47,378 nt of DNA from an uncultured Syntrophaceae bacterium (lineage in GTDB: Bacteria > Desulfobacterota > BSN033 > UBA1163): positions 1 to 47,378 of the forward strand of contig CAYMTD010000001.1 in NCBI GenBank assembly GCA_964393245.1. Reading direction: 5' to 3'. Positions 236-38,111 of this stretch are shown piece after piece. Numbering within the stretch: the first letter of the stretch is position 1; every line of letters begins with the position of its first letter. A program made the translations under genes and the position numbers. The notes under the pieces are model-generated. The model did no database searches and had not been told where the DNA came from. It saw only the letters and a program-made list of their open reading frames with translations.

Positions 236-261
236 AGAAACGAAAAAAGGGGGTGTCACGA

Positions 262-351
262 AAATACCTCCGACCTATTTCCTCCCTTTGGGAGGGATAG
301 GCGTTAGGGTGCGAGGAGCAATTCTCACGCCTGCCTTGTCTGCAAAGGAGG
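262..351 (+). promoter_or_regulatory. candidate Moco/Tuco (molybdenum/tungsten cofactor) riboswitch aptamer
   Basis: CCUCCGA (267-273) can pair with AAAGGAGG (344-351) to close a multi-stem junction. Internal hairpins at 274-301 and about 300-331, and GCCUG at 329-333. Lies directly upstream of a W/Mo-pterin enzyme gene. Consensus recalled from memory, not scanned. Confidence 0.5.
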
Positions 352-393
352 CAATGTCGGCCCTAAAAAGTTGGACATTGCCCTTTGTTTTTT
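350..393 (+). terminator. intrinsic terminator / riboswitch expression platform
   Basis: 9-bp stem GGCAATGTC (350-358) / GACATTGCC (374-382) followed by CTTTGTTTTTT. Overlaps the 3' strand of the putative aptamer P1. Confidence 0.6.
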
Positions 394-449: not shown

Positions 450-2180
450 ATGGACAGAATCTTCAGAATAAATATGGACAGTCTCAAGGTTTCTGAGGAG
501 AAAGTCAGCGGGGATTATATTGGCCTGGGAGGGCGTGGGTTGACATCTATGGTGGTGAGCAAGGAAGTCCCGCCTCTATGTAATCCGATCGGTCAACATA
601 ACAAACTGGTCATCGCCCCCGGGCTTTTGACGGGGACGACCGCTGCAAATTCGGGGAGGCTTTCCATCGGCGGCAAGAGCCCTTTGACAGGAGGGATCAA
701 GGAGAGCAATGTAGGGGGCACGGCGGCAACCAAATTGGCGCGATTGGGCATTGCTGCCATCATTATCGAAGGGAAGCCGGAGAAGGGAAAGCTTTACGGC
801 CTGGCCGTTAGCAAGGACGGGGCAAAGCTCTTCCCAGCGGATGATTTGAAAGGACTGGGGAACTATGCATTAACAGAGAAACTTCAGGCTAAATATGACA
901 AGAAAGCAGGCATTATCTCCATCGGGCCTGCCGGGGAGATGAAGATGGCAATGGCCAGTATCGCTGTCACCAGTACCAACGGGACCCCTTCTCGTCATGC
1001 AGGAAGGGGAGGCATGGGTGCGGTGATGGGATCAAAAGGCTTGAAGGCGATTGTCATCGATGACACAGGAGGTGAAAAGGTCCCTATAAAGAACCCGGAC
1101 CTTTTCAAGGAGGCTTCTCAAAAGTTTGTGAAGGCATTGCGGGAACATCCCGTGACCAGCCAGGGGCTCCCAAAGTATGGCACTAATATTCTGGCAGCGA
1201 TCATTAATGAGGCCGGAGGGTATCCGACCCGGAATTTCTCCTCGGGACGATTTGAGGGGACTGACAAGATTAGTGGAGAGACGATGCATCAGATTATTTC
1301 CAAGAGGGGAGGCAAGACGACCCATTCCGGATGCACGACCTGCATCATTCAGTGTTCGAATGAGTACGTGGATGAAAAAGGCAAATATATCACCTCAGCC
1401 CTTGAATATGAGACGGTCTGGGCCAACGGGGCCAACTGTGGGATTGACGACCTGGATGCGATTGCCCGTATCGACCGCCTTTGCGACGATTATGGGTTTG
1501 ATACGATTGAAATGGGCTGCACGATAGGGGTGGCCATGGAAGCGGGGGTCAAGGAGTTTGGAGACGCCGAAGGTGCGATCCAGTTGATCCATGAGGCCGG
1601 AAAGGGAACGCCTCTGGGAAGGATTATTGGAAACGGCGCTGCTTTCACAGGGAAGGCTTTTGGCGTGACCCGGGTTCCGGTGGTGAAAAACCAGGGAATG
1701 CCCGCTTATGAGCCCCGGGCCATTCAGGGGATCGGCGTGACCTATGCGACTTCGACCATGGGCGCCGACCATACAGCTGGATACGCTACAGCCACAAATA
1801 TTATGAAAGTCGGGGGATATGTCGATCCATTGAAACCTGATGGCCAGATGGCGTTGTCCCAGAATCTTCAGATTACTACTGCCGCCGTTGATTCAACAGG
1901 CCTCTGCCTGTTTATTGCATTTCCAGCACTGGATATGCCGGAATGCTTTGCGGGTGTGATTGGAATGCTCAATGGTCGGTACGGATGGAATCTAACGGCT
2001 GACGACGTGGCCGCCCTCGGAAAGAAGATTCTGAAGGTGGAGAGAGATTTTAATGAGCGGGCAGGCTTTTCCAATCTGGACGACCGGCTGCCGGAGTTTT
2101 TTAAAGAGGAGAAACTCCCTCCCCATAATCTAACTTTTTTGGTTCCCGATGTTGACCTGGATAAGGTCTTTAAGTTTTAA
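450..2180 (+). CDS. aor: aldehyde:ferredoxin oxidoreductase family tungstopterin enzyme (AOR1)
   Basis: 576 aa. AOR N-terminal domain (GLGGRGL..., GGKSPLTGG). CxxCxxxC cluster motif (GCTTCIIQC), LEYE, GADH, and a distal Cys in DSTGLCLF. SD AAGGAAAGGAGG at 431-442. Confidence 0.9.
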   Translation: MDRIFRINMDSLKVSEEKVSGDYIGLGGRGLTSMVVSKEVPPLCNPIGQHNKLVIAPGLLTGTTAANSGRLSIGGKSPLTGGIKESNVGGTAATKLARLGIAAIIIEGKPEKGKLYGLAVSKDGAKLFPADDLKGLGNYALTEKLQAKYDKKAGIISIGPAGEMKMAMASIAVTSTNGTPSRHAGRGGMGAVMGSKGLKAIVIDDTGGEKVPIKNPDLFKEASQKFVKALREHPVTSQGLPKYGTNILAAIINEAGGYPTRNFSSGRFEGTDKISGETMHQIISKRGGKTTHSGCTTCIIQCSNEYVDEKGKYITSALEYETVWANGANCGIDDLDAIARIDRLCDDYGFDTIEMGCTIGVAMEAGVKEFGDAEGAIQLIHEAGKGTPLGRIIGNGAAFTGKAFGVTRVPVVKNQGMPAYEPRAIQGIGVTYATSTMGADHTAGYATATNIMKVGGYVDPLKPDGQMALSQNLQITTAAVDSTGLCLFIAFPALDMPECFAGVIGMLNGRYGWNLTADDVAALGKKILKVERDFNERAGFSNLDDRLPEFFKEEKLPPHNLTFLVPDVDLDKVFKF

Positions 2181-2558: not shown

Positions 2559-3020
2559 TTGGTAACGGTCTATGTTAAGTTGACGGGAAGTTTTCTCCCA
2601 TATGGTTCTCCAGAACAGCCGGGGCCCATTGAAATTACCCTCAAGAATGGAGCCACGATCCAGGAGGCCATTCAAGCGTTGGGGATACCCAAGGAAAGAG
2701 TCAAGCTGATCTTTGTTAATCACAGGGGGGCCTTTTTGGATCAGCTGCTCAAAGATGGAGACAGGGTTTCCCTTTTTCCGGCAGAATATCCGGTTTTCGC
2801 TGATTGGAAGGGATCTATTCTTAGGAAAGCACATGACGATGAGATGATCGAGGAGGGGAGAATGAAAAAGTGGAAGTGCTCAATTTGCGACTATATCTAT
2901 GACCCATCAAAGGGAGATCCTGATAACGGAGTGAAACCTGGAACGGCCTTTGAGGCAATTCCAGATGACTGGGTTTGCCCCACTTGCGGTGCCGGAAAGG
3001 ATATGTTTGAACCCCAGTAG
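2559..3020 (+). CDS. beta-grasp domain protein reading in frame into a complete rubredoxin (fusion or read-through)
   Basis: TTG start. Residues 1-80 are a paralogue of 2253..2546. The C-terminal 52 aa, [15 protein letters not shown]...[18 protein letters not shown], is a canonical rubredoxin (CxxC...CPxCG). An internal SD GAGGAGGGG (2850-2858) plus in-frame ATG at 2862 could give a free 52-aa rubredoxin. Confidence 0.7.
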
Positions 3021-19718: not shown

Positions 19719-19808
19719 GCATAAAATCCCCCTTTCTCCCCCCCTTTGCCAAAGGGGGGGGTGGGGGGGTTAGGATGTCAATTTTAAAAATAGAAAGGAG
19801 GAATGTTT

Positions 19809-20957
19809 ATGGCATTAGAGTGGATGCCGAGGGAACATGAAATTAAATTTCACGATCGTCATAGCAAAGAGCATTGGGGGACAGAGGCGCCGTGTGTGGT
19901 CTATGAGAAAAAGCCTTTGAAGGATCCAAAGGGCAATGTCATTCAGGGCCTCTATAATGTCTGGATCAGACTCAATAACCCTGCTCAGTACAACTCCTAT
20001 ACGACGGAGATGGTGAAGGGTGTTATCGCTGGTATGGAGAATGCGTCCACGGATCGCTCGATTGTGGCCGTTGTATTTACCGGCACTGGCCCTTACGCTT
20101 TCTGTACGGGCGGAAATACCAAAGAGTATTCAGAGTATTACAGTATGCGGCCGGAGGAGTATGGGGCTTACATGGAGCTTTTCAATAACATGGTTGATGC
20201 CATCCTCATGTGTAAGAAACCTGTGATCTGCCGCGTCAATGGGATGAGGGTGGCTGGAGGACAGGAAATCGGGACGGCCTGTGACCTCTCGATTGCCTCA
20301 GACCTTGCGATTTTTGGACAGGCTGGTCCCCGCCATGGGTCAGCCCCTGTGGGCGGTGCCTCTGACTTCCTTCCCTGGTACCTGAGCATCGAAGATGCGA
20401 TGTGGAGCTGCATCAGCTGTGAGATGTGGTCTGCCTACAAAATGTGGCGAAAGGGACTCATCACAAGGTGCGTTCCTGTTCTCAAGGATGATAAGGGCAA
20501 ATGGGTACGCAACCCACAGATTATTACAGATGATTACGTGAAGGACGGTGAGTTGGTATACGGTGAGTTCAAGACAGGCGACGAATTCAAGCAGGCACGA
20601 GAGTGGGTGAACAATAAACTTAAGAATAATGAGTTCGATTTCTCCCTGCTTGACGCCGAAGTGGAGAAGATCTGCTGGACCTTTGCAAATCTCTTCCCCG
20701 GCTGTCTGATGATGTCCATCGACGGCATCCGAAATAAGAAGAAGTTTTTCTGGGATCAAATGAAGAACCCGAACAGACACTGGCTCGCAGCAAATATGAT
20801 GGGAGAAGCCTTCCTTGGGTTCGGTGCCTTCAATACGAAGAAGATCACGGGTGTGGATACGATCGACTTCATCAAGTATCGCCAGAATATTGCCGAAGGC
20901 AAACTCGTGGATGAGAAATTCTTTGAGGAAGTGCTGGGAAAACCTCAGAAGAAGTAA
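19809..20957 (+). CDS. bamA: 6-oxocyclohex-1-ene-1-carbonyl-CoA hydrolase (ring-opening enzyme Oah/BamA)
   Basis: LEWMPREHE N-terminus, QYNSYTT, FCTGGNTKEYSEYY, VNGMRVAGGQEIG, FGQAGPRHGSAPVGGASDFLP. These are blocks I recall from Oah/BamA. About 380 aa, crotonase-like. Confidence 0.88.
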   Translation: MALEWMPREHEIKFHDRHSKEHWGTEAPCVVYEKKPLKDPKGNVIQGLYNVWIRLNNPAQYNSYTTEMVKGVIAGMENASTDRSIVAVVFTGTGPYAFCTGGNTKEYSEYYSMRPEEYGAYMELFNNMVDAILMCKKPVICRVNGMRVAGGQEIGTACDLSIASDLAIFGQAGPRHGSAPVGGASDFLPWYLSIEDAMWSCISCEMWSAYKMWRKGLITRCVPVLKDDKGKWVRNPQIITDDYVKDGELVYGEFKTGDEFKQAREWVNNKLKNNEFDFSLLDAEVEKICWTFANLFPGCLMMSIDGIRNKKKFFWDQMKNPNRHWLAANMMGEAFLGFGAFNTKKITGVDTIDFIKYRQNIAEGKLVDEKFFEEVLGKPQKK

Positions 20958-21076
20958 GGATTTTGATTGAATGATTCAAAAAACATTACACCCTTTGGGC
21001 TTGATAATATTTCCTTGCCCAAAGGGTGTTTTTTCCCTGAACCATGTGGGGTCCAGGGCGACGGGAGGTGAGACCA

Positions 21077-21844
21077 ATGGCATACAAACATATTCAGACA
21101 GAACTTAAAGAAGGCGTGGCTGCCCTGACCTTGAACCGGGCTCCACTCAATGTACTGAATATCGAGATGATGGAGGAGATCAATGATTATCTCGAGGGGT
21201 TGAAGAAAGAGAAATCACTGAAGCTCCTGGTCATCCAGGCGGCTGGGAAAGCCTTCTCCGCAGGTGTCGATGTCGGAGAACATCTCGGTGATCTGGTCTA
21301 TAAGATGATTGAGGTCTTCCACAAAATGTTTCGATTGATGGACGCCCTGGAGGTCCCCTCCATTGCTGTCGTAAACGGTTCTGCCTTGGGAGGAGGATGC
21401 GAACTGGCTCTCTACTGCGATATGGTGATTGCGACTGACAAATCGAAATTTGGACAACCCGAAATACAGGTCGGAGTCTTCCCTCCGATCGCCGCCCTGA
21501 TCTTCCCGAGAATGATCGGACGGAAGAAGGCCATGGAGTTGATTCTTTCAGGAGATATCATCAGTGCCCAGGAAGCCCTCTCCATGGGTTTGATCAACAA
21601 GGTGGTTCCGGAGGCTTCCCTTGCCGATGAGGTCAATGGATTTATTGGAAAGTTTAAGAAATTAAGTAGGATCGTTTTGAAATTGGCGAAAGAGGCGACG
21701 CTCGCAGGTCTCAATGATGATGTGGATAAAGGCCTTAAGACGATTGAAAAAATCTACTTGGATCGGCTCATGAAGACGGGCGATGCTATGGAAGGCCTCA
21801 AGGCCTTTTTGGAGAAGCGAAAACCCAACTGGAAAGATATTTGA
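21077..21844 (+). CDS. dch: enoyl-CoA hydratase (crotonase); likely cyclohexa-1,5-diene-1-carbonyl-CoA hydratase (Dch/BamR)
   Basis: 255 aa crotonase fold (FSAGVDV, NGSALGGGCELAL, FGQPEIQVG). Gene context had-oah-dch. SD GGGAGGTGA before the ATG. Confidence 0.65.
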   Translation: MAYKHIQTELKEGVAALTLNRAPLNVLNIEMMEEINDYLEGLKKEKSLKLLVIQAAGKAFSAGVDVGEHLGDLVYKMIEVFHKMFRLMDALEVPSIAVVNGSALGGGCELALYCDMVIATDKSKFGQPEIQVGVFPPIAALIFPRMIGRKKAMELILSGDIISAQEALSMGLINKVVPEASLADEVNGFIGKFKKLSRIVLKLAKEATLAGLNDDVDKGLKTIEKIYLDRLMKTGDAMEGLKAFLEKRKPNWKDI

Positions 21845-27137: not shown

Positions 27138-27878
27138 ATGAGACTCAAGGGTAAAAAGGCGATCGTAACCGGAGCAGGGCAGGGCATCGGTCGAAGCATC
27201 GCGCTGAAGATGGCTGAGGAAGGAGCAGATGTCGTCATTGCCGAGTGGAATCCTGAGACAGGGAATCAGACGAAGAAAGAAGTGGGGGCCTTAGGGAGGA
27301 GAGCCCTGTTGATGAAGGTCGATGTAGCGAATCAAAATCAGGTTCGGAACATGGTGAGCGAAGTATTGAAGACCTGGGGGAGGATCGATATTCTGGTCAA
27401 CAACGCAGGGTTCGATCGAGGCGCCACCCTTTTGAAAGTGAAGGAAGAAGATTGGGATGCTGTGTTGAATGTCCATTTGAAAGGAACCTTGAACTGCATC
27501 CAGGCTGTTGCCCCTCACATGATCGAAAACCGTTATGGTAAAATTATTAACATTTCTTCCATCTATGCAAAAAGCGGGGGGGTCGCGGCAATCAGTTACA
27601 GTGCCGCAAAGGCGGGGATCATTGGCCTCACAAAAAGCGTGGCCAGAGAACTGGGTCGTTACCAGATCAATGTGAATGTTGTTCTTCCAGGGTTGATTTT
27701 GACCCCCACCATTGCCAAGATGGCTGAGAAATATCGAAATATGATCATTGAGCGTACGCCTTTAGGACGCATTGGCCAGCCGGAGGAGGTGGCCAGTGTC
27801 GTGGCTTTTTTGGCATCGGACGAGGCAAGTTTTATGACAGGAGCCACCGTAGAAGTCTCGGGCGGATCGAGTATGTAG
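27138..27878 (+). CDS. short-chain dehydrogenase/reductase (FabG-like)
   Basis: TGAGQGIG, NNAG, YSAAK motifs. 246 aa. Confidence 0.85.
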   Translation: MRLKGKKAIVTGAGQGIGRSIALKMAEEGADVVIAEWNPETGNQTKKEVGALGRRALLMKVDVANQNQVRNMVSEVLKTWGRIDILVNNAGFDRGATLLKVKEEDWDAVLNVHLKGTLNCIQAVAPHMIENRYGKIINISSIYAKSGGVAAISYSAAKAGIIGLTKSVARELGRYQINVNVVLPGLILTPTIAKMAEKYRNMIIERTPLGRIGQPEEVASVVAFLASDEASFMTGATVEVSGGSSM

Positions 27879-28230: not shown

Positions 28231-29376
28231 ATGAATGATATCGAACAGATGAGAGAGGGTTGGAGAAAAAAGGCCAGGGAAGTGGCCAAGAATATTGTCG
28301 CCCCACGGGCAGCGGAGATCGATGCAACGGGAGAATTTGCCTGGGATATCGTCGACGTCTTCGCGCAGGAAGGATTTTTGAGCCTTATCATCCCGAAAGA
28401 ATATGGGGGAATGGATGGTGACATTACCTCCTTCTGCATGGTGGCCGAAGAGATGGCGATCTACTGCGCCTCCTCCTCACTCCTCGTAATCGTTCAAGCG
28501 GTTGGAACAATGCCTCTTGTCTTGGGAGGATCCGAGGAACTGAAGAAAAAGTTTCTACCGAAATTGTCCAAGGAGAAGGGTTTGATCTGTTTCTGCATTA
28601 CGGAACCTGAGGCAGGATCCGATGCGGCTTCGATCCGAACCAAAGCCATTCTGAGCGGCGACCACTATGTCCTGAACGGCAGGAAATGTTTTATCACGAA
28701 TGGTGGCGTCTCAGACCTTTACACGGTTTTTGCCGTGACGAGTCATGAAAAGAAGATGGAGGGGATCACAGGTTTTGTGATCGAAAAGGGGACACCGGGT
28801 CTTTCTGTTGGGAAGACAGAAGAAAAAATGGGAATCCGAGGCTCGAATACCACGGAAGTGGTCTTGGAAGATGTGAAGGTGCCAATCTCCCAACGGATCG
28901 GAGATGAGGGGGTGGGTTGGTGGCTTATGATGAGAACGTTGAATCGTTCGAGGCCAGCCATCGGTGCTCAGGCCGTGGGATTGGCACAAGGGGCTTTAAA
29001 CTATCTCGTTGAAAAAGGCAGAGAGAAGGGATGGTTTAGGAGCAAGAACGGGGCGTTAGGAGTTCAATCAAAGTTAGCCGAACTCGCCGTGGAGATTGAG
29101 GCCGCCAGAGCCTTGGTTTACAAATCTGCGAGAATGATGGACGAAAAGGTCAAAGGGACCCCGGTCCAGATGTTTTCAGCCATGTCGAAATACTTTGCCT
29201 CTGATATTGCCATGAAAGTAACGACCGAAGCCGTCCAGATCCTGGAATGGGAAGGACTCACGAGAAATCATCCGGTTGAACGAATGATGAGAGATGCAAA
29301 GGTGATCCAGATCTTCGAGGGAACAAATCAGGTTCAACGGATGGTAGTGGCCCACACGTTGCTCAAAGGAAGGTAA
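28231..29376 (+). CDS. acyl-CoA dehydrogenase (ACAD-4)
   Basis: 381 aa. CFCITEPEAGSD, FITNG, IQIFEGTNQVQ. Confidence 0.85.
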   Translation: MNDIEQMREGWRKKAREVAKNIVAPRAAEIDATGEFAWDIVDVFAQEGFLSLIIPKEYGGMDGDITSFCMVAEEMAIYCASSSLLVIVQAVGTMPLVLGGSEELKKKFLPKLSKEKGLICFCITEPEAGSDAASIRTKAILSGDHYVLNGRKCFITNGGVSDLYTVFAVTSHEKKMEGITGFVIEKGTPGLSVGKTEEKMGIRGSNTTEVVLEDVKVPISQRIGDEGVGWWLMMRTLNRSRPAIGAQAVGLAQGALNYLVEKGREKGWFRSKNGALGVQSKLAELAVEIEAARALVYKSARMMDEKVKGTPVQMFSAMSKYFASDIAMKVTTEAVQILEWEGLTRNHPVERMMRDAKVIQIFEGTNQVQRMVVAHTLLKGR

Positions 29377-29448: not shown

Positions 29449-29464
29449 GTTCACTATTGTGAAC
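29449..29464. promoter_or_regulatory. operator-like palindrome S1 (GTTCAC TATT GTGAAC)
   Basis: Perfect 6-N4-6 inverted repeat. About 45 nt upstream of the -35 of the AOR2 promoter. Confidence 0.55.
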
Positions 29465-29566: not shown

Positions 29567-29582
29567 GTTCAGTATTGTGAAC
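29567..29582. promoter_or_regulatory. operator-like palindrome S2 (GTTCAG TATT GTGAAC)
   Basis: One mismatch relative to S1. About 30 nt downstream of the putative -10, in the leader. Confidence 0.55.
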
Positions 29583-29652
29583 ATGATGGGTAGCGGGCGC
29601 GGTCCCGAAACCGAGCGATCATTGTTTCTTGGCATTAAGAAAGGGGGTTGTT

Positions 29653-29934
29653 ATGGGAAACGAGAAACAAGGCCTTTCAACAGCTGAATCCCTGCGTAAG
29701 ACTCGTACCTATGGCCAGGTGAGGTGCCATAATCCCAGTTGTATGGGAAGAATTACGCCAGAGCCCGGGGCAAAGCAAGTGAAATGTCCCCGTTGTGGTA
29801 TGGAATGGCGTATCGCCTGGGTCAAAGACGGTTTTCCCCGGATCAGAGGTCCCGTATGGGATGTGGACACAAGATTAGCACAAGAGGCATTTGAAAGAAA
29901 AATGAAGGAGGAAAGGAAAGATGGCCCTAAATAG
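29653..29934 (+). CDS. Zn-ribbon miniprotein (93 aa), unknown family
   Basis: SD AAGGGGG then ATG. Cys pairs CHNPSC and CPRC. Basic C-terminus. Its stop overlaps the AOR2 start by 14 nt (translational coupling). Confidence 0.55.
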   Translation: MGNEKQGLSTAESLRKTRTYGQVRCHNPSCMGRITPEPGAKQVKCPRCGMEWRIAWVKDGFPRIRGPVWDVDTRLAQEAFERKMKEERKDGPK

Positions 29935-31861
29935 GAAGATAGCGTACATTGATCTCACCACCGGCAAGATTGAAATCAAGCCTATTCCGATCGAAATCCG
30001 GAAAAAATTCCTGGGAGGCAGGGGGCTGGATGCCTACCTGCTTTACAATCATACGAAAAAAGCGTGTGACCCCCTTGGGCCTGACAATACCTTGATGGTG
30101 AGCGGTGGAATTTTAACTGCCACTTTGGCCTCGGCAACCTCCAGATGCCACGTGATGGCCAAATCTCCGTTGGGAGGGATGTTAGGAAGCTCTAACATGG
30201 GAGGTTTCTTTACTCCTGAGTTAGCCTGGGCAGGGTTTCATCATCTTGTCATCAAGGGCAAGGCGCAAAAACCTGTCTACCTGTGGATCCACAATGGGAA
30301 GATTGAGATCCGCGATGCAAAAAACATTTGGGGAAAAACGGTCACAGACACCCAATGGGCGATCCGAGAGGAGCTAGGGGATGAGGATATCAAGAGTTTG
30401 GTGATCGGTCCGGCGGGGGAAAATCTGGTAAGGTATGCGAATGTGATGACCGGAATCAAGAATTCTGGTGGAAGGACCGGGATGGGAGCAGTCATGGGCT
30501 CAAAAAATTTGAAGGCCGTTGCTGCCCGTGGCACCATGGATATAAAGATCGCCTATCCAAAAGAAGCACTCGAATACAACAAACGCTTTATTGATCAAAT
30601 TACAAGCGCGAAGGTCAACCAGACCCAGGGGGCCCTCGGAACCCCATTCATTTGGGGAGCGACCAACTCCTGGGGCGGGGTTCGAACCAGAAACTTCCAG
30701 TATAACCAGCAGCTCTATTGCGATGAAATCGAGCCGGAATCGATTGATGATAACGCTACAGAAACGATTGGGCCCTACCATATGACGGGTTGCTTCGGTT
30801 GCCAGGTCCACTGCCGGGCTAAGTATAAGATTCCGACCGGACCTTACGCAGGAAAGTATGATGAGGGTCCGGAGTATACTTCCCAGGGTGCTTTTTGCTC
30901 TGAACCAGATATCCCCAGCCTCGAAACCCTATTGACGGCGAATCACTTGGTCGATCAATGGGGGGTGGACAACCTCGAAATCGGAAGCCTCATCTCTTGG
31001 GCGATGGAGCTCTATGAGCTGGGAATTCTCACGAACAAGGAGACCGATGGCTTAGAATTGCGGTTTGGCAGTAGTGAGGCACTGCTGGAGATGATCGAAC
31101 GGATCTGCTTTAGAAAGGGCTGGTTGGGTGATACCTTGGCCGAGGGAGGGATTATTGCCTCTGAGAGAATTGGGAAAGATTCTTTTGACTACCTGATTCA
31201 GGTCAAAGGAGTGAGCAATCTTCACTCTGATGAGCGCGCAACCCCTGCCCTTGCTCTTAATATTGCTACCGCTTCGCGCGGCTCAGACCACTTAAGAAGT
31301 CGACCCGCAATTGATCTATACCATCTGCCCGTGGATGTGCTGAGGAAGATTTACAGTAGCCCGGTTCCCTATGACGGCCCGCTGAGTTCGGAGCATACGG
31401 AATACATCGGCAAGCCATGGCAGGTCTTTTGGCAAGAAAATTGTTATATGGGGGTGGATTGTCTTGGGATCTGTAAGTATCACACGACCTTCCTGGGTGC
31501 AACGCTTCCCAACTTTGAAGACTGGTCTAAAGTGCTTTATTACAATACCGGGCTGGAGCTTACCCCCCGGGAAATCTGGGAGGTTGCTGAGCGGTGCAAT
31601 ATGATGGAGCGGCTCTTCAACCTCCGTGAAGGTTTGAAACGGGAAGATCTTTACAGGGGTGATATGCTCAATCACCGATACTTTGATGAGCCCACCCGAA
31701 GAGGTGCGCCCGACGTTGTCGGCAGGGTGATCGATCGGGAAAAATTCAGGAAGATGGTCGACGAATTCTACGAATATAAGGGCCTTGACCAGAACGGCGT
31801 TCCGAAGCCAGAGACGCTCAAGAGGCTTGGCCTGGATAAGGAACCCTCCCACCTGCTGTAA
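29921..31861 (+). CDS. AOR-family tungstopterin enzyme, long form (AOR2; BamB/WOR5/AorB-like size class)
   Basis: 646 aa. AOR N-domain (FLGGRGLDAYL, KSPLGG), CFGCQVHC cluster motif, GPEY, SRGSDH, distal Cys in DCLGICKY. SD AGGAGG. No Tat signal. Confidence 0.88.
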   Translation: MALNRKIAYIDLTTGKIEIKPIPIEIRKKFLGGRGLDAYLLYNHTKKACDPLGPDNTLMVSGGILTATLASATSRCHVMAKSPLGGMLGSSNMGGFFTPELAWAGFHHLVIKGKAQKPVYLWIHNGKIEIRDAKNIWGKTVTDTQWAIREELGDEDIKSLVIGPAGENLVRYANVMTGIKNSGGRTGMGAVMGSKNLKAVAARGTMDIKIAYPKEALEYNKRFIDQITSAKVNQTQGALGTPFIWGATNSWGGVRTRNFQYNQQLYCDEIEPESIDDNATETIGPYHMTGCFGCQVHCRAKYKIPTGPYAGKYDEGPEYTSQGAFCSEPDIPSLETLLTANHLVDQWGVDNLEIGSLISWAMELYELGILTNKETDGLELRFGSSEALLEMIERICFRKGWLGDTLAEGGIIASERIGKDSFDYLIQVKGVSNLHSDERATPALALNIATASRGSDHLRSRPAIDLYHLPVDVLRKIYSSPVPYDGPLSSEHTEYIGKPWQVFWQENCYMGVDCLGICKYHTTFLGATLPNFEDWSKVLYYNTGLELTPREIWEVAERCNMMERLFNLREGLKREDLYRGDMLNHRYFDEPTRRGAPDVVGRVIDREKFRKMVDEFYEYKGLDQNGVPKPETLKRLGLDKEPSHLL

Positions 31862-31937
31862 CGATATCATCCCCACCGTTGCCATCCCCCCTTGAGGGGG
31901 AGGGGTGGGTGGGGGGTAACGAAAGGAGAACAAGTTA

Positions 31938-32447
31938 ATGGAACCGATGGGTAAAGTTCTTGCGATCAGTCCTGAAAAGTGCACCGGCTGCAGGCTCTGT
32001 GAGCTCGTCTGTTCGGTTTTCCATGATGGCGTATCCAATCCTGCTCGAAGCCGGATAAAAGTTATGAAATGGGAGTCAGAAGGGATCTATGTTCCGATGT
32101 CCTGTCAGCAGTGTCAGGATGCCCCCTGTATGATCGTTTGTCCTGTGAAGGCAATTACCCGCGACGAGTCACTCAGCCGGGTGGTGGTCAATCATGATAT
32201 CTGCATTGGCTGCCGTTCCTGTGTGGCGGTTTGCCCCTTTGGAGCAATGAATTTCAGCGTTATGGATCGAAAGAATTTTAAGTGCGATCTCTGTGACGGA
32301 GATCCGCAGTGCGTTCGTTTCTGTGAAGTTAAAGCAGTGGATTATGTGGATGCGGACCGGGTAAGTATTGCCAAGAAGAGGGCAGCGGCTGAAAAGATCA
32401 CTGCCGCTCAAAGGCAGGCGATCGCCTTAGAGTCAGAATCACGCTAA
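31938..32447 (+). CDS. four-cluster [4Fe-4S] ferredoxin subunit (BamC/AorA/DmsB-like, FCP-1)
   Basis: 169 aa with four Cys motifs: CTGCRLCELVC, CQQCQDAPCMIVCP, CIGCRSCVAVCP, CDLCDGDPQCVRFC. No signal peptide. Confidence 0.85.
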   Translation: MEPMGKVLAISPEKCTGCRLCELVCSVFHDGVSNPARSRIKVMKWESEGIYVPMSCQQCQDAPCMIVCPVKAITRDESLSRVVVNHDICIGCRSCVAVCPFGAMNFSVMDRKNFKCDLCDGDPQCVRFCEVKAVDYVDADRVSIAKKRAAAEKITAAQRQAIALESESR

Positions 32448-32533
32448 GGTGAATTAGTTTCGTCTGCGAATAGAAAGGTTTTGTAGGCGCAACCTTTAGG
32501 TTGCGTAATATCCAATGGTCTGCGATTTGTACA

Positions 32534-32562
32534 GGGGCTGGTTTGATGCCAGCCCCTTTTCT
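32534..32562 (+). terminator. intrinsic terminator of the AOR2 operon
   Basis: GGGGCTGG (32534-32541) / CCAGCCCC (32549-32556) followed by TTTTCTT. Confidence 0.65.
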
Positions 32563-32847: not shown

Positions 32848-33120
32848 TTATCCTCCTGCAAGCATCACAAGAAGGTTGATTTCGTCCCCATCCTTGACGG
32901 GTTTGGTGAGTTCATTGGGGTAGGCGGTTACATTATTTACAAAAATCTCAACGACATTGAGCAGTTTGTCCTTCTTGGCAAACAACGCCTTCTCCATCCC
33001 AGGGTACTGTTTGACCAATTGGTTCAGACACTCCCCAACCGTATTTCCCTCTACGATGACCATATCCTGGCCGTTGGTAAATCGGCGGTGTGTGATGTGA
33101 ATATGTACCTTGACAGGCAT
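32848..33120 (-). CDS. MoaD-family beta-grasp sulfur-carrier-like protein with C-terminal GG
   Basis: 90 aa ending ...KDGDEINLLVMLAGG*, a canonical MoaD/SAMP-type tail. Confidence 0.75.
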   Translation of the reverse strand: MPVKVHIHITHRRFTNGQDMVIVEGNTVGECLNQLVKQYPGMEKALFAKKDKLLNVVEIFVNNVTAYPNELTKPVKDGDEINLLVMLAGG

Positions 33121-33182: not shown

Positions 33183-33668
33183 CTACCTCAACTGTTTTAT
33201 CGATTCGATAAATCTGTTGGCGGCTTCTCGCTTCTTGGTCACCTCAATCCTATCGGCATCGACATAAGTGACTGCCTTCGGTTCACAGAAGGCGACGCAC
33301 TTAGGATCCCCATCACAAAAGTCGCACTTCACCGTCACCCGATCCTGAACGTCAAAGAATGGGTGACCAAAAGGACAGGCGACGACACAAGTCCTGCACC
33401 CGATGCATAGATTTTTGTCGATCACTACCCGGTTATTGTTTTCGGGTTCCCGATGACAGGCCTTGGTCGGACAGACCTCAACGCAGTAGGCCTTTTCACA
33501 GTGATTGCAGATCATAGGAAGGTAGATCCCCACATGCTCCCATTTCACCACCCTGATACGGGACCGGCTCGGATTGCTTGCGCCAGTGTGCTGCACGGAA
33601 CAGACCAGCTCACAGAGGCGGCATCCGGTGCACTTTTGCTGATCGACCACTAATACCTTTTGCTCCAT
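33183..33668 (-). CDS. four-cluster [4Fe-4S] ferredoxin (FCP-2), paralogue of 31938..32447
   Basis: 161 aa. CTGCRLCELVC, CNHCEKAYCVEVCP, CIGCRTCVVACP, CDFCDGDPKCVAFC. Collinear with FCP-1 along its whole length. No signal peptide. Confidence 0.85.
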   Translation of the reverse strand: MEQKVLVVDQQKCTGCRLCELVCSVQHTGASNPSRSRIRVVKWEHVGIYLPMICNHCEKAYCVEVCPTKACHREPENNNRVVIDKNLCIGCRTCVVACPFGHPFFDVQDRVTVKCDFCDGDPKCVAFCEPKAVTYVDADRIEVTKKREAANRFIESIKQLR

Positions 33669-33876: not shown

Positions 33877-34878
33877 TTACGAATTATGATTTGGATTCTT
33901 AACCAAATCATACTGGATTTCCATCAACCGAATCATCGGAATCCGATCCTTGATACCCGCTTGGAGGACTCCCAGGCGGAGAAAAAAGCCCCCGCAAAGA
34001 AGGAGGACCCCGGCGGTGAAGATCAACGTTATACTTCCGGGGGAGAACGAGGCAATGGCCTCAAGAATCAAAGGAAAGATGAAGCCAAGGAGAACGATTC
34101 CTCCCCAAAAGATCAGTTTCATATCTCCAAACAGAAGAAGACGAACCGAATCCTTTCCCTGTTCGGCGGCTTTATACCTCTGAAAAAGGAAGAAATAAAG
34201 CACCATTCCTTCGAGTACGACGAGAATCTGTTCCCCGCGCATCAAGAATTTAAGCGCCTCACCCTGACTCGAGAGAAGGCCAGTTCCAAGGGTGGAAAGG
34301 ATGATGGCCATGGATCCGGTTGACAGTGCTGAAACCAGAAAGAGCAGCGGAAGAAGATTGGTATTCCATAAGGGGATCGATTTGGTCGCCTTCAAAAGAA
34401 TGCCTGTGTACAGGGCGGTGGCAAATGCAAAGGCGAGGGTGACGACCTCGGGGACAATCCAGAAGGGAGACTCAGCATGGAGCCATTTGAAAGGGAAAGC
34501 AGATTTTGCCAAAAGAACCACTCCCAATACAATGAAAATGGCGAGGATAAGAAAGCCCCGAGCCACCCAAGAGGTTCTTGGGTTCAGACAGGCATATAAG
34601 AATCTCCTCTTGATACCTAGATCTAAAATGAGGAAAGGAGCACCGATGGCGACCAGAAGGGGCCCCCACAAAATAGCGGCTTTTGCAGAGTCGAAGGGCA
34701 ACCCCCAAATCGATAGACCCCTGGTAGGCTGAACAAACCAGTTGAGGAGGGTACCAATCACATAAGCGCCGGCTCCCATTCCCGCAAGATAGAGATAAAT
34801 AGCCGGAATTTCCTTCCATTCTTGTTGAGGCCTGAGACACCTCACGTTTCTTATGGGATAAATAGACTCTTTCCCCAT
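33877..34878 (-). CDS. NrfD/PsrC/DmsC-family polytopic membrane protein (quinone-interacting anchor type)
   Basis: About 333 aa from the ATG at 34878 (MGKESIYP...). WKEIPAIYLYLAGMGAGAY, LDLG.KRRF, SW.ARG, and 8 or more hydrophobic helices are typical of NrfD-like anchors. The longer ORF-track start at 34977 would cover operator S3. Confidence 0.75.
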   Translation of the reverse strand: MGKESIYPIRNVRCLRPQQEWKEIPAIYLYLAGMGAGAYVIGTLLNWFVQPTRGLSIWGLPFDSAKAAILWGPLLVAIGAPFLILDLGIKRRFLYACLNPRTSWVARGFLILAIFIVLGVVLLAKSAFPFKWLHAESPFWIVPEVVTLAFAFATALYTGILLKATKSIPLWNTNLLPLLFLVSALSTGSMAIILSTLGTGLLSSQGEALKFLMRGEQILVVLEGMVLYFFLFQRYKAAEQGKDSVRLLLFGDMKLIFWGGIVLLGFIFPLILEAIASFSPGSITLIFTAGVLLLCGGFFLRLGVLQAGIKDRIPMIRLMEIQYDLVKNPNHNS

Positions 34879-34959
34879 GCTCGTGTTTACATCCCCCTTC
34901 CTGCTGATCTGATGAAGTCTCCCCCTCTCAAAGAGCGAAAGACAAGGCGAAAAGAAAGA

Positions 34960-34975
34960 GTTCTTTAGAGTGAAC
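34960..34975. promoter_or_regulatory. operator-like palindrome S3 (GTTCTT TAGA GTGAAC)
   Basis: Right half-site perfect, left 4/6. Lies 10-25 nt downstream of the putative minus-strand promoter and about 85 nt upstream of the nrfD-like ATG. Confidence 0.45.
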
Positions 34976-34992
34976 AAGCAAGAAGTGACTTA

Positions 34993-35020
34993 ATCATAGC
35001 ATATCTTTTTATCCTGTCAA
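34993..35020 (-). promoter_or_regulatory. candidate promoter of the nrfD-like gene
   Basis: On the minus strand: TTGACA (35020-35015), 16-nt spacer, TATGAT (34998-34993). Confidence 0.4.
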
Positions 35021-35200
35021 GATTTATGGAAAAAAGATTTCCCGACGTCTCATCGAAACCCTTTCCCATGAGATGCTGAACCGAGTTCAGCATAACAGCA
35101 GAGGCCAATTCCATTGTTGCCCTGAACTTGGTTCTGGGTCTGATAGGGAATTGCATTCGCCGTGTGGGCGACGGACTTCAAGAATACTTTAAGGGGTATA

Positions 35201-35229
35201 TTGACAAAAGGAGAAAGAATCTGTTACTT
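35201..35229 (+). promoter_or_regulatory. candidate promoter of the IclR gene
   Basis: TTGACA (35201-35206), 17-nt spacer, weak -10 TTACTT (35224-35229). Confidence 0.35.
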
Positions 35230-35239
35230 TTTGCTAAGA

Positions 35240-35255
35240 GTTCATTATGGTGAAC
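35240..35255. promoter_or_regulatory. operator-like palindrome S4 (GTTCAT TATG GTGAAC)
   Basis: Ends 3 nt before the IclR ATG. Same architecture as S1-S3. Confidence 0.55.
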
Positions 35256-35257
35256 GA

Positions 35258-36028
35258 ATGAAAAAGACGGGTTATTTTGCTCCCTCTGTTCAAAAGGCAT
35301 TCAAGATTCTCCAGACGATTGCGGATTCCCCCTCGGGTTTGGGGGTGAGTGAGCTGGCAAAGAAATTGGGCATGGGAAAAAGCACCGTTCATGGGATTAC
35401 AATGGGGCTTGAGGGCTTGGGAGTCCTCGTTAGAGATCCCGTAGATAAGAGGTTCAATCTTGGATACAGCTTGTTAGAACTGGGCCGAAGAACTTATGTG
35501 AGGATTGAACTCCGGGATGTCGCCAGGGTGCCGATGGAACGATTGATGGAAAGGGTAGGGGAGACGGTCTTCCTGGGGATTCTCAATGGAGACCATGTAA
35601 CCATTTTAGAGGTGGTGGAATCTCATCGTGAGATGAAGATTACCTCACCCCCTGGGACAAAACTCCCGCTGCTCGCCGGAGCAACAGGGAAGGTCTTTCT
35701 TTCTCTGGTTGATGAGAAAAAGGCTAAAGAGATTGTTCTGAAATTAGGCTTGGTCAAATTCACTCCCAAGTCCCTCGTCGATCAAAAAAAGTTTCTCAGA
35801 GAAGTGGAGGAGACGAGAAAAAGAGGCTATGCCATTGACGATGAGGAGTATATGCTCGGGGTCAGAGCGGTTGCAGCCCCCATTCACACGGCTTCCCCTC
35901 CTGTGGCTGCAATTTGGGCGGTGGGATTTACTTCAAGTCTCAACGACCAAAAAATGGACCGAGCGATTTCGGAGATTAAGAAAACCGCTGAGGAAATTAG
36001 CCAGTCGATGAAGAAACACGTTAGCTGA
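35258..36028 (+). CDS. IclR-family transcriptional regulator
   Basis: SVQKAFKILQTIADSPSGLGVSELAKKLGMGKSTVHGI is the IclR wHTH, followed by a C-terminal effector domain. The longer ORF-track start is unlikely because it would cover the promoter and operator. Confidence 0.85.
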   Translation: MKKTGYFAPSVQKAFKILQTIADSPSGLGVSELAKKLGMGKSTVHGITMGLEGLGVLVRDPVDKRFNLGYSLLELGRRTYVRIELRDVARVPMERLMERVGETVFLGILNGDHVTILEVVESHREMKITSPPGTKLPLLAGATGKVFLSLVDEKKAKEIVLKLGLVKFTPKSLVDQKKFLREVEETRKRGYAIDDEEYMLGVRAVAAPIHTASPPVAAIWAVGFTSSLNDQKMDRAISEIKKTAEEISQSMKKHVS

Positions 36029-36097: not shown

Positions 36098-37171
36098 TCA
36101 GAGTGTCCGGAGGGCTCTTACAATATCATCTCCGACCTCATTCGTCTTTGAGCGTCCGCCAAGATCAATGGTTCTAACCTTCTTCTCAGCCAGATTTTTC
36201 TTAACAGCCTGATATAAGAGATTGGCCGCTTCCATTTCATTCAAATATTCCAACATCATCTTGGCTGTGAGAATAGCTGCGATGGGGTTGGCCAACCCTT
36301 TTCCAGCAATATCAGGAGCGGAGCCGTGAACGGGATCGAAAAATCCGGGGTAGGTTTTGTCCTTGGGATTAAAGCTGGCTCCAGGGGCCAATCCCATTCC
36401 TCCTGTGACGGAAGCGGTCAGGTCTGAGAGGATATCGGCAAAGAGATTCGAAGCGACAATCACATCGTATCCCTTGGGATTTCGCACCACGTCCATACAG
36501 GCGGCGTCGATCAGTTTGGATTCGGTTTGAATCTCAGGAAAGCGAGAAGCCACCTCTCTAAAGACTCGATCCCAGAGGACCATTCCATAACGCTGGGCAT
36601 TCGATTTGGTCACGGAGGTGACCTTCTTTCTTCGCTTCTCTCTTGCATATTCGAAGGCGAAGGTGATGATCCTTTCGATTCCCTTTCGGGTGAAGAGACC
36701 ACTCTGGATGGCCAGTTGTTGTTCCTCAATTCCAACGATCCCTCCGATGTTCGAATACTCCCCCTCGGTATTCTCCCGGATGACGACGATATCGATCTCG
36801 CCTTCCGAGATGTTCGCCACCGGAGACTCAATCCCCGGAAAGAGATAGACAGGTCGCAGTCCCACATAAAGATCAAATCCCATCTTAATGGGTAGAAGAA
36901 GGCCATGAAGGGTCACATCGTCCGGAATTCTCGGGTCTCCGACGGCTCCCAGATAGATCGCATCAAATCCTTTTAAGATCTCCAGCCCGTCTTCGGGCAT
37001 CATCCCTCCGTGCTGAAGATAGTACTCACTGCCCCATGGGAAATATTCGAATTCGAATTGGATGGTCTCCATGATTTCAGAGAGGGCATTTAGGCATTTA
37101 ATCCCTTCTGAGATCACTTCCTTTCCGATTCCATCTCCAGGGATGACAGCGATTCGATGAGGTCCCTTCAT
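36098..37171 (-). CDS. isocitrate/isopropylmalate dehydrogenase superfamily; tartrate/D-malate dehydrogenase (decarboxylating)-like
   Basis: 357 aa. HRIAVIPGDGIGKEV, FDAIYLGAVGDP, LRPV, NLFADILSD, GSAPDIAGKG. The N-terminal region resembles the TtuC type as I recall it. Confidence 0.7.
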   Translation of the reverse strand: MKGPHRIAVIPGDGIGKEVISEGIKCLNALSEIMETIQFEFEYFPWGSEYYLQHGGMMPEDGLEILKGFDAIYLGAVGDPRIPDDVTLHGLLLPIKMGFDLYVGLRPVYLFPGIESPVANISEGEIDIVVIRENTEGEYSNIGGIVGIEEQQLAIQSGLFTRKGIERIITFAFEYAREKRRKKVTSVTKSNAQRYGMVLWDRVFREVASRFPEIQTESKLIDAACMDVVRNPKGYDVIVASNLFADILSDLTASVTGGMGLAPGASFNPKDKTYPGFFDPVHGSAPDIAGKGLANPIAAILTAKMMLEYLNEMEAANLLYQAVKKNLAEKKVRTIDLGGRSKTNEVGDDIVRALRTL

Positions 37172-37223: not shown

Positions 37224-38111
37224 TCACAGCGCCCCGACGCTCCGGAGAATGCCTTCCACCACTCGCCTCCCTTCGGCATCCAGCGGCTTCTGCGGCGGCA
37301 GGGGCGGGCCGACGGGAAAACCCTGCATTTCGAGCCCCGCCTTGACACATGCTGACAAAGAAAAACGCTGGAAAGCCACGTTGAGCGGCCATTGTTTTTT
37401 CTGGATCTCGGCCGCCTCTTCCCACCGTTTTTTGTGTGCCGCCTCGTACAGCTCGATACTCTGGGAAGGGATGACGCAGGCCGGACCGGACATCCAGCCT
37501 ACAGCGCCGATAAGAAACATGAACAGGGGTACGGAGGAGGTATCGCTGAAGATCCTGATGCGCTGACCGAGGGTTGTCACGATGGACATGATCTTCCCTA
37601 CGTCGCCGGAGGCGTCTTTCAGGTAGAGGATATTCGGTTCTTCGGTCAATTGCTTAAGTGCCTCCACCGTGAAGTCCCAAGTCTGGAACTTGGGATTGGT
37701 ATACAGGGTGATCGGGCAGGAGACGGCCTTCGCGATGGCCCGAAAGTGGCCGATGACCTGTTGGTCGTTTAGCGGAAAATAGCCGGGCATCAGCGTCAGG
37801 ATGCCGTCGACCCCCAATTTTTCGGTCTCCGCCGCTTCGCGGACGGCGCCGTGCGTGGAGTTATTGCAGACCCCGGCCACCACCGGCACGCGTCCCGCTG
37901 TCGACTTCACGACCACCTCAATCGTGCGTCGTTTCGTTTCCCAATCCAGGTAGGGTGCCTCTCCAGTGCTACCCAGTGGGGTGAGGCCGTGAACGCTCTT
38001 GCGGATCAGGTGATCGACGAGATCGGCCAGGACCTGCTCTTTGAGGCGACCCTTTTCGTCCAACGGTGTAACAAGGTACGGGAAGATGCCGTGGAATTCG
38101 CTCTTGCCCAT
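37224..38111 (-). CDS. dihydrodipicolinate synthase / N-acetylneuraminate lyase family (class I aldolase or dehydratase)
   Basis: 295 aa. GSTGE motif, LYTNP, and Schiff-base lysine context LYLKDASGD. Confidence 0.75.
   Translation of the reverse strand: MGKSEFHGIFPYLVTPLDEKGRLKEQVLADLVDHLIRKSVHGLTPLGSTGEAPYLDWETKRRTIEVVVKSTAGRVPVVAGVCNNSTHGAVREAAETEKLGVDGILTLMPGYFPLNDQQVIGHFRAIAKAVSCPITLYTNPKFQTWDFTVEALKQLTEEPNILYLKDASGDVGKIMSIVTTLGQRIRIFSDTSSVPLFMFLIGAVGWMSGPACVIPSQSIELYEAAHKKRWEEAAEIQKKQWPLNVAFQRFSLSACVKAGLEMQGFPVGPPLPPQKPLDAEGRRVVEGILRSVGAL

Follow-up and report, generated by a model that had tools for sequence, protein, structure and literature searches.

A zinc-ribbon miniprotein gene conserved beside a WorL/WorS-type tungsten enzyme pair, mainly in Thermodesulfobacteriota

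In a 2026 classification of tungsten enzymes of the aldehyde oxidoreductase (AOR) and tungsten oxidoreductase (WOR) family, a physiological role is defined for any member in only five of 92 clades (PMC13328260). Two described systems lie near the one considered here, AorAB(C) of Aromatoleum aromaticum (PDB 8c0z) and the WorSL pair of Acetomicrobium mobile WorABCSL (9mqx). In both, a tungsten subunit is combined with a polyferredoxin carrying four [4Fe-4S] clusters, and chains of WorS or AorA have been described as nanowires with exchangeable “plugs” (PMC12318220). Here we analyse a 47,378-nucleotide (nt) contig of an uncultured Syntrophaceae bacterium (GenBank assembly GCA_964393245.1, contig CAYMTD010000001.1, positions 1 to 47,378; hereafter the window), in which the tungsten enzyme gene AOR2 stands between a gene for a zinc-ribbon miniprotein and a gene for a polyferredoxin, Fd1. 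We propose, with a probability of roughly 60%, that this trio is the conserved core of a distinct and widely conserved branch of tungsten AOR/WOR-family enzymes, found mainly in Thermodesulfobacteriota. The enzyme type itself, WorL plus WorS, is already known. An obligate zinc-ribbon partner, an invariant non-canonical second shell around the active site, and a proposed cytoplasm-facing quinone coupling with interchangeable modules are not described in the 2026 classification (PMC13328260). The trio is laid out as follows.

29653..29934, + strand: zinc-ribbon miniprotein gene; open reading frame (ORF) with ATG start, 93 aa, 10.7 kDa, pI 9.7
29921..31861, + strand: AOR2, WorL-type AOR/WOR-family catalytic subunit; Pfam AFOR_N and AFOR_C, 646 aa
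31938..32447, + strand: Fd1, AorA/WorS-type polyferredoxin; 169 aa, four [4Fe-4S] motifs, 16 Cys, PDB matches
32533..32557, + strand: strong intrinsic-terminator-like hairpin (10-bp stem, T-rich tail), closing the zinc-ribbon/AOR2/Fd1 unit

ORFs, domains and conservation in relatives bear out the trio that the initial annotation of the window had picked out. The mechanically called zinc-ribbon ORF extends back to a TTG at 29629; the start used by orthologues is the ATG at 29653, which is preceded by a Shine-Dalgarno-like AAGGGGG. The end of this ORF overlaps the start of AOR2 by 14 nt. Species-representative genomes were scanned with AOR2-specific peptides; 253 matched, and the best 80 loci (AOR2 81-94% identity) were examined. 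The zinc-ribbon gene lies directly upstream of AOR2 in 79 of the 80, at 56-84% amino acid identity (the exception has ~100 nt of upstream sequence), and an Fd1-type ferredoxin gene lies downstream of AOR2 in all 80. The tight junction, on which the annotation had based its proposal of translational coupling, is kept in 73 of the 79 loci: 30 show the 14-nt overlap, and in 43 the two genes are a couple of bases apart.

The association also holds in the reverse direction, as all 14 zinc-ribbon loci examined have an AOR2-like gene next door. In the five long-form loci, the zinc-ribbon gene is followed by an AOR gene of 646-647 aa and then by a ferredoxin gene of 168-170 aa. Beside the two divergent forms (66 and 84 aa) the next gene is 65-66% identical to AOR2, and in all seven short-form metagenome loci it is 60-65% identical; the single short-form locus that is long enough also has a 158-aa ferredoxin. 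With the survey run both ways, the zinc-ribbon ORF proves to be conserved beside AOR2 homologues, contrary to the outcome that the initial annotation had named as refuting its view. Median dN/dS values of 0.155 for the zinc-ribbon gene, 0.041 for AOR2 and 0.061 for Fd1 indicate purifying selection on all three. The hosts of the AOR2 clade are mostly syntrophic or sulfate-reducing Thermodesulfobacteriota, and the module forms a well-delimited and strongly conserved clade.

AOR2 covers the whole Pfam profiles of both family domains (AFOR_N, E = 5.9e-75; AFOR_C, E = 1.8e-96). Its motifs C291xxC294xxxC298, E318-Y319 and G454-S-D-H457 are those expected of the family, and its [4Fe-4S] ligands C291, C294, C298 and C518 correspond to C288, C291, C295 and C494 of Pyrococcus furiosus (Pf) AOR. 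The first three are invariant in all 81 clade sequences used for residue counts, and C518 is aligned to Pf C494. AOR2 is predicted to bind a tungsten bis-pyranopterin along with a single [4Fe-4S] cluster; for the bis-pyranopterin, MoaD-like, ThiF and MobB genes beside the trio are indirect support.

According to a 2025 review (PMC12096430), the conserved second shell of aldehyde-oxidising members consists of Thr243, Glu313, Tyr427 and His448 (Pf numbering), with Glu313 as the proposed proton acceptor or general base. AOR2 retains T241 (Pf Thr243) and H457 (Pf His448), both invariant in 81 of 81 sequences, and the equivalents of Glu311 and Tyr312 are also present. The other two shell residues are replaced in sequence alignments. 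Pf Glu313 becomes Thr320 (EYE to EYT) and Pf Tyr427 becomes Ser436, which follows H435 (NLHSDER versus PAYDPR), each again in 81 of 81 sequences. The Glu is found as EYE in Pf AOR, WorL, AorB, the C. autoethanogenum AFOR and AOR1, the second paralogue in the window, and as DYE in WOR5. T320 and S436 are retained in a subclade at 60% identity as well (T320 was seen in locus L092). The initial statement that AOR2 keeps the motifs of aldehyde-oxidising AORs thus stands for EY, the His, CxxCxxxC and GSDH, and fails for the positions of Glu313 and Tyr427. Since two of the four conserved second-shell residues are replaced, the substrate or chemistry of AOR2 probably differs from that of the classical broad-spectrum aldehyde oxidoreductases. 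Because the neighbouring genes vary, no particular substrate can be named from context. Around the catalytic His, the segment at residues 453-470, RGSDHLRSRPAIDLYHLP, is invariant at 18 of 18 positions and contains a clade-specific 6-aa insertion. A further insertion spans residues 471-506. The ~40 extra residues of AOR2 are likewise clade-specific insertions, and its length, which had been taken as a match to the size class of BamB, is therefore no sign of kinship.

Closeness to known enzymes was measured as bit scores against all PDB sequences. AOR2 scored highest with P. furiosus AOR (306 bits) and A. mobile WorL (304), followed by AorB (257), FOR (245) and WOR5 (214), while BamB reached 204 bits in two stretches and was the eighth of nine PDB sequence matches. 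Fd1 gave the same picture, with 151 bits to AorA (8c0z_C, E = 2.7e-43), 148 to WorS, 107 to WOR5-S and 59 to BamC. The initial caution against calling AOR2 a BamB was therefore justified, and the comparison with AorAB- and WorSL-type enzymes was apt; the proposed likeness to BamBC gives way to P. furiosus AOR/WorL and AorA/WorS as the nearest relatives of the pair.

Besides the subunit pair, AorAB(C) and WorABCSL share with the AOR2 module the presence of MoaD-like genes nearby. The AOR2 module differs from both in having neither the flavin adenine dinucleotide (FAD) subunit AorC nor the bifurcating module WorABC, with a membrane NrfD module as the probable partner here, and in its additional zinc-ribbon gene, its replaced Glu313 and Tyr427 equivalents and its ~40 inserted residues. 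No gene for the FAD-containing AorC or WorN of NAD-linked class III (AorABC-type) enzymes was found in the window or in the conserved neighbourhood of the 80 related loci. Both Fd1 and its paralogue Fd2, described below, have a C-terminal helix after a KKR motif, which resembles the nanowire-building helix of AorAB and WorSL (PMC12318220). P. furiosus AOR (1aor) has the same domains and cluster cysteines and the same Thr243, Glu311, Tyr312 and His448 equivalents as AOR2; in contrast to the AOR2 module, it has one kind of subunit, works with a soluble ferredoxin and possesses both Glu313 and Tyr427. The two-gene layout of WorL and a four-cluster WorS is shared with WOR5/ASOR of P. furiosus (6x6u), a class II WorLS enzyme, and in the loop after CxxCxxxC AOR2 aligns to WOR5 without gaps. 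WOR5 is, however, the more distant match, keeps the Glu (DYE) and has no zinc-ribbon partner. The trio contains the class II WorLS gene pair; the third conserved gene and the alternative partner modules would speak against an enzyme of only two subunits with soluble ferredoxin as its carrier.

Two further systems combine such enzymes with membrane proteins. Escherichia coli YdhYVWXUT, a class V WOR of clade 41, has AOR-family, ferredoxin-like and membrane subunits that suggest a respiratory role, as here. Class V enzymes are periplasmic, with a Tat signal (for twin-arginine translocation) on WorS and the Cys ligand C336, whereas the membrane subunit here is of NrfD type and no twin-arginine signal is found at the start of Fd1 (MEPMGKVLAISPEKC) or Fd2 (MEQKVLVVDQQKC). 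Because Fd2 has no Tat signal, it is predicted to be cytoplasmic. The five-class scheme of 2026 lists the periplasmic, Tat-dependent clade 41 enzymes as the only membrane-associated WORs and does not mention a zinc-binding partner (PMC13328260). In its gene neighbourhood, the module resembles the clade 87 WOR termed “type U” in Feng et al. 2025 (PMC12318220), in which WorSL adjoins membrane quinone-related genes. Type U is uncharacterised, is mentioned in passing as a proposed respiratory enzyme, and no zinc-ribbon partner or active-site changes are described for it (PMC12318220). Its membrane genes lie downstream in the same operon, whereas in the window they are convergent to the WorSL-like pair.

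The zinc-ribbon protein has four cysteines in two knuckles, C25, C30, C45 and C48 (CHNPSC...CPRC). They are invariant and, in the alignment and an AlphaFold2 (AF2) model, show the generic zinc-ribbon pattern CxnC...CPxC flanking beta strands. Besides the zinc ribbon and a beta-hairpin, the model (pLDDT 77) has two helices, a short one at the N-terminus and another at the C-terminus. Among 17 diverse members 32 of the 93 positions are invariant. A word-indexed search returned 682 homologues, ~93 aa long and 62-85% identical, which all belong to uncultured genomes of the Thermodesulfobacteriota type, and an exhaustive profile search gave 81 clusters at 50% identity, including forms of 60-80 aa that hold only the core, R-C-x2-4-C-x2-R...C-P-x-C...W-R-I-x-W...(K/R)-I-R-G-P-V-W. 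The second knuckle, CPxCG as in rubredoxins, suggests that the cysteines could hold iron in place of zinc. The family is an unnamed one, as the initial annotation had stated. No Pfam or NCBIfam model matched above its cut-off (Pfam IBR, 17.3 bits against 24.3), Pfam gave no rubredoxin or DUF1610 match and NCBIfam none either, the best E-value of a PDB profile search was 0.059, which is not significant, and Foldseek returned no match at E <= 0.001. Sub-threshold likeness to IBR/RING2 and to ribosomal zinc ribbons recurred across the searches.

We also considered homology to the C-terminal zinc-finger/helix “plug” of WorA in 9mqx and rejected it, as this structure gave no match in the PDB profile search at E <= 10 and was absent from the 50 listed Foldseek PDB matches. 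Given this result, and since short family members have no C-terminal helix, we keep the analogy to the WorA plug as speculation.

In many NCBI genome records with a zinc-ribbon gene, its product lacks a protein accession, and in others it is labelled “IBR domain-containing” or “hypothetical”; annotation pipelines often overlook or misname the small gene. The present analysis places this small and often unannotated ORF in a tungsten enzyme system.

The initial annotation had found AOR2 without its usual partners and had left its electron partner open. No BamDEFGHI-like or AorC-like gene follows AOR2 in the window (Pfam, NCBIfam), as it had noted. Genes for a MoaD-like protein, the Fd1 paralogue Fd2 and an NrfD-family protein nevertheless adjoin the trio downstream on the minus strand, followed by an IclR-family regulator, and an operator motif is common to both sides. 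The NrfD and Fd2 genes are convergent to the trio, ~0.7-2.5 kb downstream of it.

32848..33120, - strand: MoaD/ThiS-like protein (“WorX” type), 90 aa; Pfam ThiS, NCBIfam moaD_arch
33183..33668, - strand: Fd2, polyferredoxin, 161 aa, 59% identical to Fd1; Pfam, NCBIfam
33877..34977, - strand: NrfD-family integral membrane subunit; Pfam NrfD 1.2e-29, multiple hydrophobic segments
34993..35020, - strand: sigma-70-like promoter ahead of the NrfD gene, TTGACA-16-TATGAT; 11/12 matches and a TG extension, a consensus match only
35162..36028, + strand: IclR-family regulator; Pfam HTH_IclR and IclR_C, likely true start ATG 35259
29449..29464, no strand: operator palindrome copy 1, GTTCACTATTGTGAAC, upstream of the zinc-ribbon gene
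29567..29582, no strand: operator palindrome copy 2, GTTCAGTATTGTGAAC, upstream of the zinc-ribbon gene
35240..35255, no strand: operator palindrome copy 3, GTTCATTATGGTGAAC, in the NrfD/IclR divergent region just ahead of the likely IclR start

The NrfD-family protein is predicted to be a quinone-interacting anchor; the start of its gene is uncertain, either TTG at 34977 or ATG at 34878. The MoaD-like protein is a probable tungsten-cofactor biosynthesis factor, and the linkage of MoaD and AOR genes has been described before and tied to tungsten-cofactor synthesis (PMC1779556, PMC6365974, PMC13328260). The operator GTTCAY-N4-RTGAAC occurs twice upstream of the zinc-ribbon gene, against 0 copies expected from shuffles. 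Among 71 related loci, 49 have a GTTCA-N6-TGAAC site upstream of their zinc-ribbon gene, and a site in the IclR/NrfD intergenic region was found in 11 of 14 NrfD-containing loci by an intergenic scan and in 12 of 14 by a whole-locus listing. This distribution fits a single regulon, and the IclR regulator probably controls the set through these operators. Its effector could reveal the substrate of AOR2. A perfect 9-3-9 palindrome at 35073-35093, ATGCTGAACCGAGTTCAGCAT, falls in the interval from the NrfD promoter-like site to the IclR gene and has the operator half-sites in the opposite arrangement; considered as a further conserved site, it was rejected because other NrfD-containing loci do not conserve it.

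Neighbours were counted by clustering all ORFs in the 80 loci (for the short-chain dehydrogenase/reductase, SDR, as homologues within 8 kb of the trio). Three candidate electron-partner modules were found, and they are mutually exclusive across the loci. The NrfD and Fd2 module is present in 14 loci and in the window. A TmcC/HmcE-like membrane cytochrome b that carries a fused di-cluster ferredoxin domain occurs in 15 (e.g. L056:1915-2940), and in 7 (e.g. L045:5408-7129) an HdrA-like flavoprotein, scoring 430 bits to HdrA, is accompanied by a 175-aa Fe-S protein; 41 loci have no partner module within their flanks. Except for one TmcC-like gene downstream, both the TmcC-like and the HdrA-like genes are found upstream of the trio and on its strand, and NrfD lies upstream on the strand of the trio in 10 loci and convergent downstream in 4 and in the window. 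This pattern matches both the nanowire-and-plug picture of WorS/AorA and the type U arrangement (PMC12318220).

In the scheme that we propose, substrate would be turned over at the tungsten centre of AOR2, and electrons would pass, away from or towards AOR2, through its [4Fe-4S] cluster and the four Fd1 clusters. Their path in this organism would probably extend further, through the paralogous Fd2 to NrfD and the menaquinone pool. The MoaD-like protein would serve tungsten-cofactor synthesis, with the IclR regulator probably controlling the set.

Several observations weigh against this interpretation. NrfD and Fd2 accompany the trio in no more than ~15 of 81 loci, and the 41 loci mentioned above have no partner module in their flanks. 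The operator at 35240 is located at the IclR start, ~220 nt from the NrfD promoter-like site, and may serve IclR autoregulation alone. All members seen derive from metagenome-assembled genomes; when cultured hosts were sought in ten zinc-ribbon protein clusters, every named member came from such a genome. The active-site mapping is based on sequence alignments and not on structure. H435 could stand in functionally for the missing Tyr, as one known AOR tolerates His in place of Tyr (PMC12096430). The zinc-ribbon fold has no informative relative in the PDB profile search or Foldseek, and no fusion of the zinc-ribbon protein to AOR2 or to a ferredoxin, which would favour a complex, was present among the homologues found. 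We infer its binding to AOR2 or Fd1, and the protein could instead be a maturation factor.

As the zinc-ribbon gene remains constant while the plugs vary, and as its product is made in step with AOR2, its most likely role is that of a small structural subunit within the AOR2-Fd1 core, to which we give odds slightly better than even. Zinc- or iron-binding accessory proteins act as maturation factors for other metalloenzymes, and a dedicated maturation or assembly factor for AOR2, which would insert the tungsten cofactor or Fe-S clusters or hold the apo-protein, is the main, though less probable, alternative. Strict co-occurrence suits it as well as it suits a subunit, genes for cofactor biosynthesis (MoaD-like, ThiF, in some loci MobB) and for a radical-SAM-like 462-aa protein are found around the trio, and the small AOR-adjacent proteins aorD/aorE (PMC6365974) and WorX (PMC13328260) are regarded as maturation factors and not as subunits. 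The position of the gene as first in the operon and its coupling to AOR2, however, suggest matched rather than catalytic amounts, other AOR clades mature without a zinc-ribbon protein, including AOR1 on the same fragment, and conservation at 32 of 93 positions is very high for a chaperone. It is very unlikely that the protein is a nucleic-acid-binding regulator, such as a translational autoregulator of the operon. Its strongly basic character, the ribosomal zinc-ribbon proteins among its weak Foldseek neighbours and the automatic JGI label “RNA-binding Zn-ribbon” of some members point that way, but the Foldseek and PDB matches are not significant, the IclR regulator with its matching operators already explains control, and strict linkage to one enzyme clade together with translational coupling is typical of protein partners.

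The reading of the trio as the core of a distinct enzyme branch can be extended, tentatively, to a tungsten enzyme of three subunits whose reaction is not classical aldehyde oxidation, in which the zinc ribbon is integral and electrons are exchanged with menaquinone or an HdrA-type module. In such an enzyme, the loss of Glu313 and Tyr427 and the invariant remodelled loop by the catalytic His would lead to a different reaction, possibly on a coenzyme A (CoA) thioester or on a carboxylated or alicyclic intermediate. The zinc ribbon would shape the substrate channel or cap the wire and might bind iron in a rubredoxin-like manner as an extra redox centre, and the polyferredoxin wire would carry exchangeable plugs, in other lineages an HdrA-type module. 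Still less probable is that the module works as a plain class II WorLS aldehyde:ferredoxin oxidoreductase of two subunits with soluble ferredoxin, NrfD and Fd2 belonging to another system and the residue changes only tuning the substrate range. The best PDB sequence matches are indeed genuine aldehyde oxidoreductases, ferredoxin-using WorLS enzymes are common (PMC13328260), GAPOR acts on an aldehyde although its second shell is incomplete, and the loci without a nearby partner module would be explained. On the other hand, three mutually exclusive electron-transfer modules adjoin the trio, Fd2 is a close paralogue of Fd1, the operator motif is common to both promoter regions, and throughout the clade the proposed general base Glu313 has been lost. 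We rejected an identity with BamBC, and a BamBC-like dearomatising benzoyl-CoA reductase core with its bifurcation partners encoded elsewhere appears the least probable of the alternatives. BamBC of Geobacter metallireducens (4z3w) belongs to the same superfamily, has a subunit of similar length (653 aa, compared with 646 for AOR2) and a ferredoxin-like second subunit; had and oah genes are 8-10 kb away in the window, 7 related loci have an HdrA-like gene upstream, and AOR2 lacks part of the aldehyde-type second shell. In BamB, however, a Cys binds tungsten and the aldehyde-type second shell is absent (PMC12096430), whereas AOR2 keeps half of that shell (the T243 and H448 equivalents) and also those of E311 and Y312. 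The ligand, C322 in BamB, is shared with E. coli YdhV (C336), where it binds tungsten or molybdenum (PMC12096430), and the comparison was made through YdhV, which is 25% identical to AOR2, and not with BamB itself. YdhV C336 aligns with AOR2 E315, no Cys occurs in AOR2 residues 299-325, and the nearest, C326, is Gly in the 60%-identity subclade. The scores of BamB and BamC are low, Bam partner genes are missing from the window, and most loci lie outside aromatic-degradation contexts. Experimental handles on the proposed core are provided by the residues to mutate and by a 10.7-kDa protein to be sought in purified enzyme.

Other genes recur near the trio with varying frequency. An IclR gene is present in 51 of the 80 loci, the radical-SAM-like 462-aa protein in 28, a MoaD-like gene in 25, the SDR in 24, a EutA-like ATPase in 21, an acyl-CoA dehydrogenase in 13 and ThiF in 10. 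The radical-SAM-like protein (~462-477 aa) gives a weak radical-SAM signal and no PDB sequence match, and is not encoded in the window; its gene is located directly upstream of the zinc-ribbon gene or just past the ferredoxin gene (e.g. L083:4019-5407, L010:5999-7408, L071:10540-11973). The EutA-like ASKHA ATPase (463 bits to Pfam EutA) adjoins the trio mostly in Desulfobacteraceae-type genomes (e.g. L073:10840-12270, L004:12880-14310). Unexpected beside a tungsten enzyme, it hints at an ATP-dependent reactivation or activation step. In five of the closest related genomes, an extra short AOR-like paralogue of ~475-553 aa, 26-31% identical to AOR2, lies several kb upstream of the trio (L015:441-1952, L029:649-2154, L026:2360-3871, L030:85-1512, L033:93-1754).

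Elsewhere in the window, the following features were identified upstream of the trio.

256..366, + strand: molybdenum/tungsten-cofactor riboswitch aptamer directly upstream of AOR1; Rfam RF01055, 53.4 bits against a cut-off of 36
450..2180, + strand: AOR1, 576 aa, short at the C-terminus; canonical residues EYE and PAYEPR
2559..3020, + strand: beta-grasp (Ub-Mut7C/MoaD-like)-rubredoxin fusion, after AOR1; NCBIfam rubredoxin, 100 bits
18597..19718, strand not given: had; passes the NCBIfam curated cut-off
19803..20957, strand not given: oah; passes the NCBIfam curated cut-off
21044..21844, + strand: enoyl-CoA hydratase, earlier called dch; 163 bits to the dienoyl-CoA hydratase model, cut-off 292.5
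27138..27878, + strand: SDR-family dehydrogenase; Pfam adh_short, recurrent neighbour of the trio, outside the core
28231..29376, + strand: acyl-CoA dehydrogenase; Pfam and NCBIfam, recurrent neighbour, outside the core

AOR1 has no zinc-ribbon or ferredoxin partner gene in the window. The riboswitch that precedes it is the only one of its kind in the window, and none was found ahead of the trio when sought there, so the two AOR paralogues are regulated differently. Of the had-oah-dch set to which the initial annotation had pointed, had and oah stand, ~8-10 kb upstream of the trio; dch does not, as the gene scores below the dienoyl-CoA hydratase cut-off and generic enoyl-CoA hydratase models outscore that model. 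The best match of the acyl-CoA dehydrogenase at 28231..29376 is cyclohexane-1-carbonyl-CoA dehydrogenase, under the cut-off of that family. Beside the IclR regulator lie a tartrate-dehydrogenase-like gene at 36098-37171 (- strand; 459 bits against a cut-off of 470) and a DHDPS/KdgD-family gene at 37224-38111 (- strand); the tartrate-dehydrogenase-like gene also adjoins the IclR gene in ~7 related loci and in L002.

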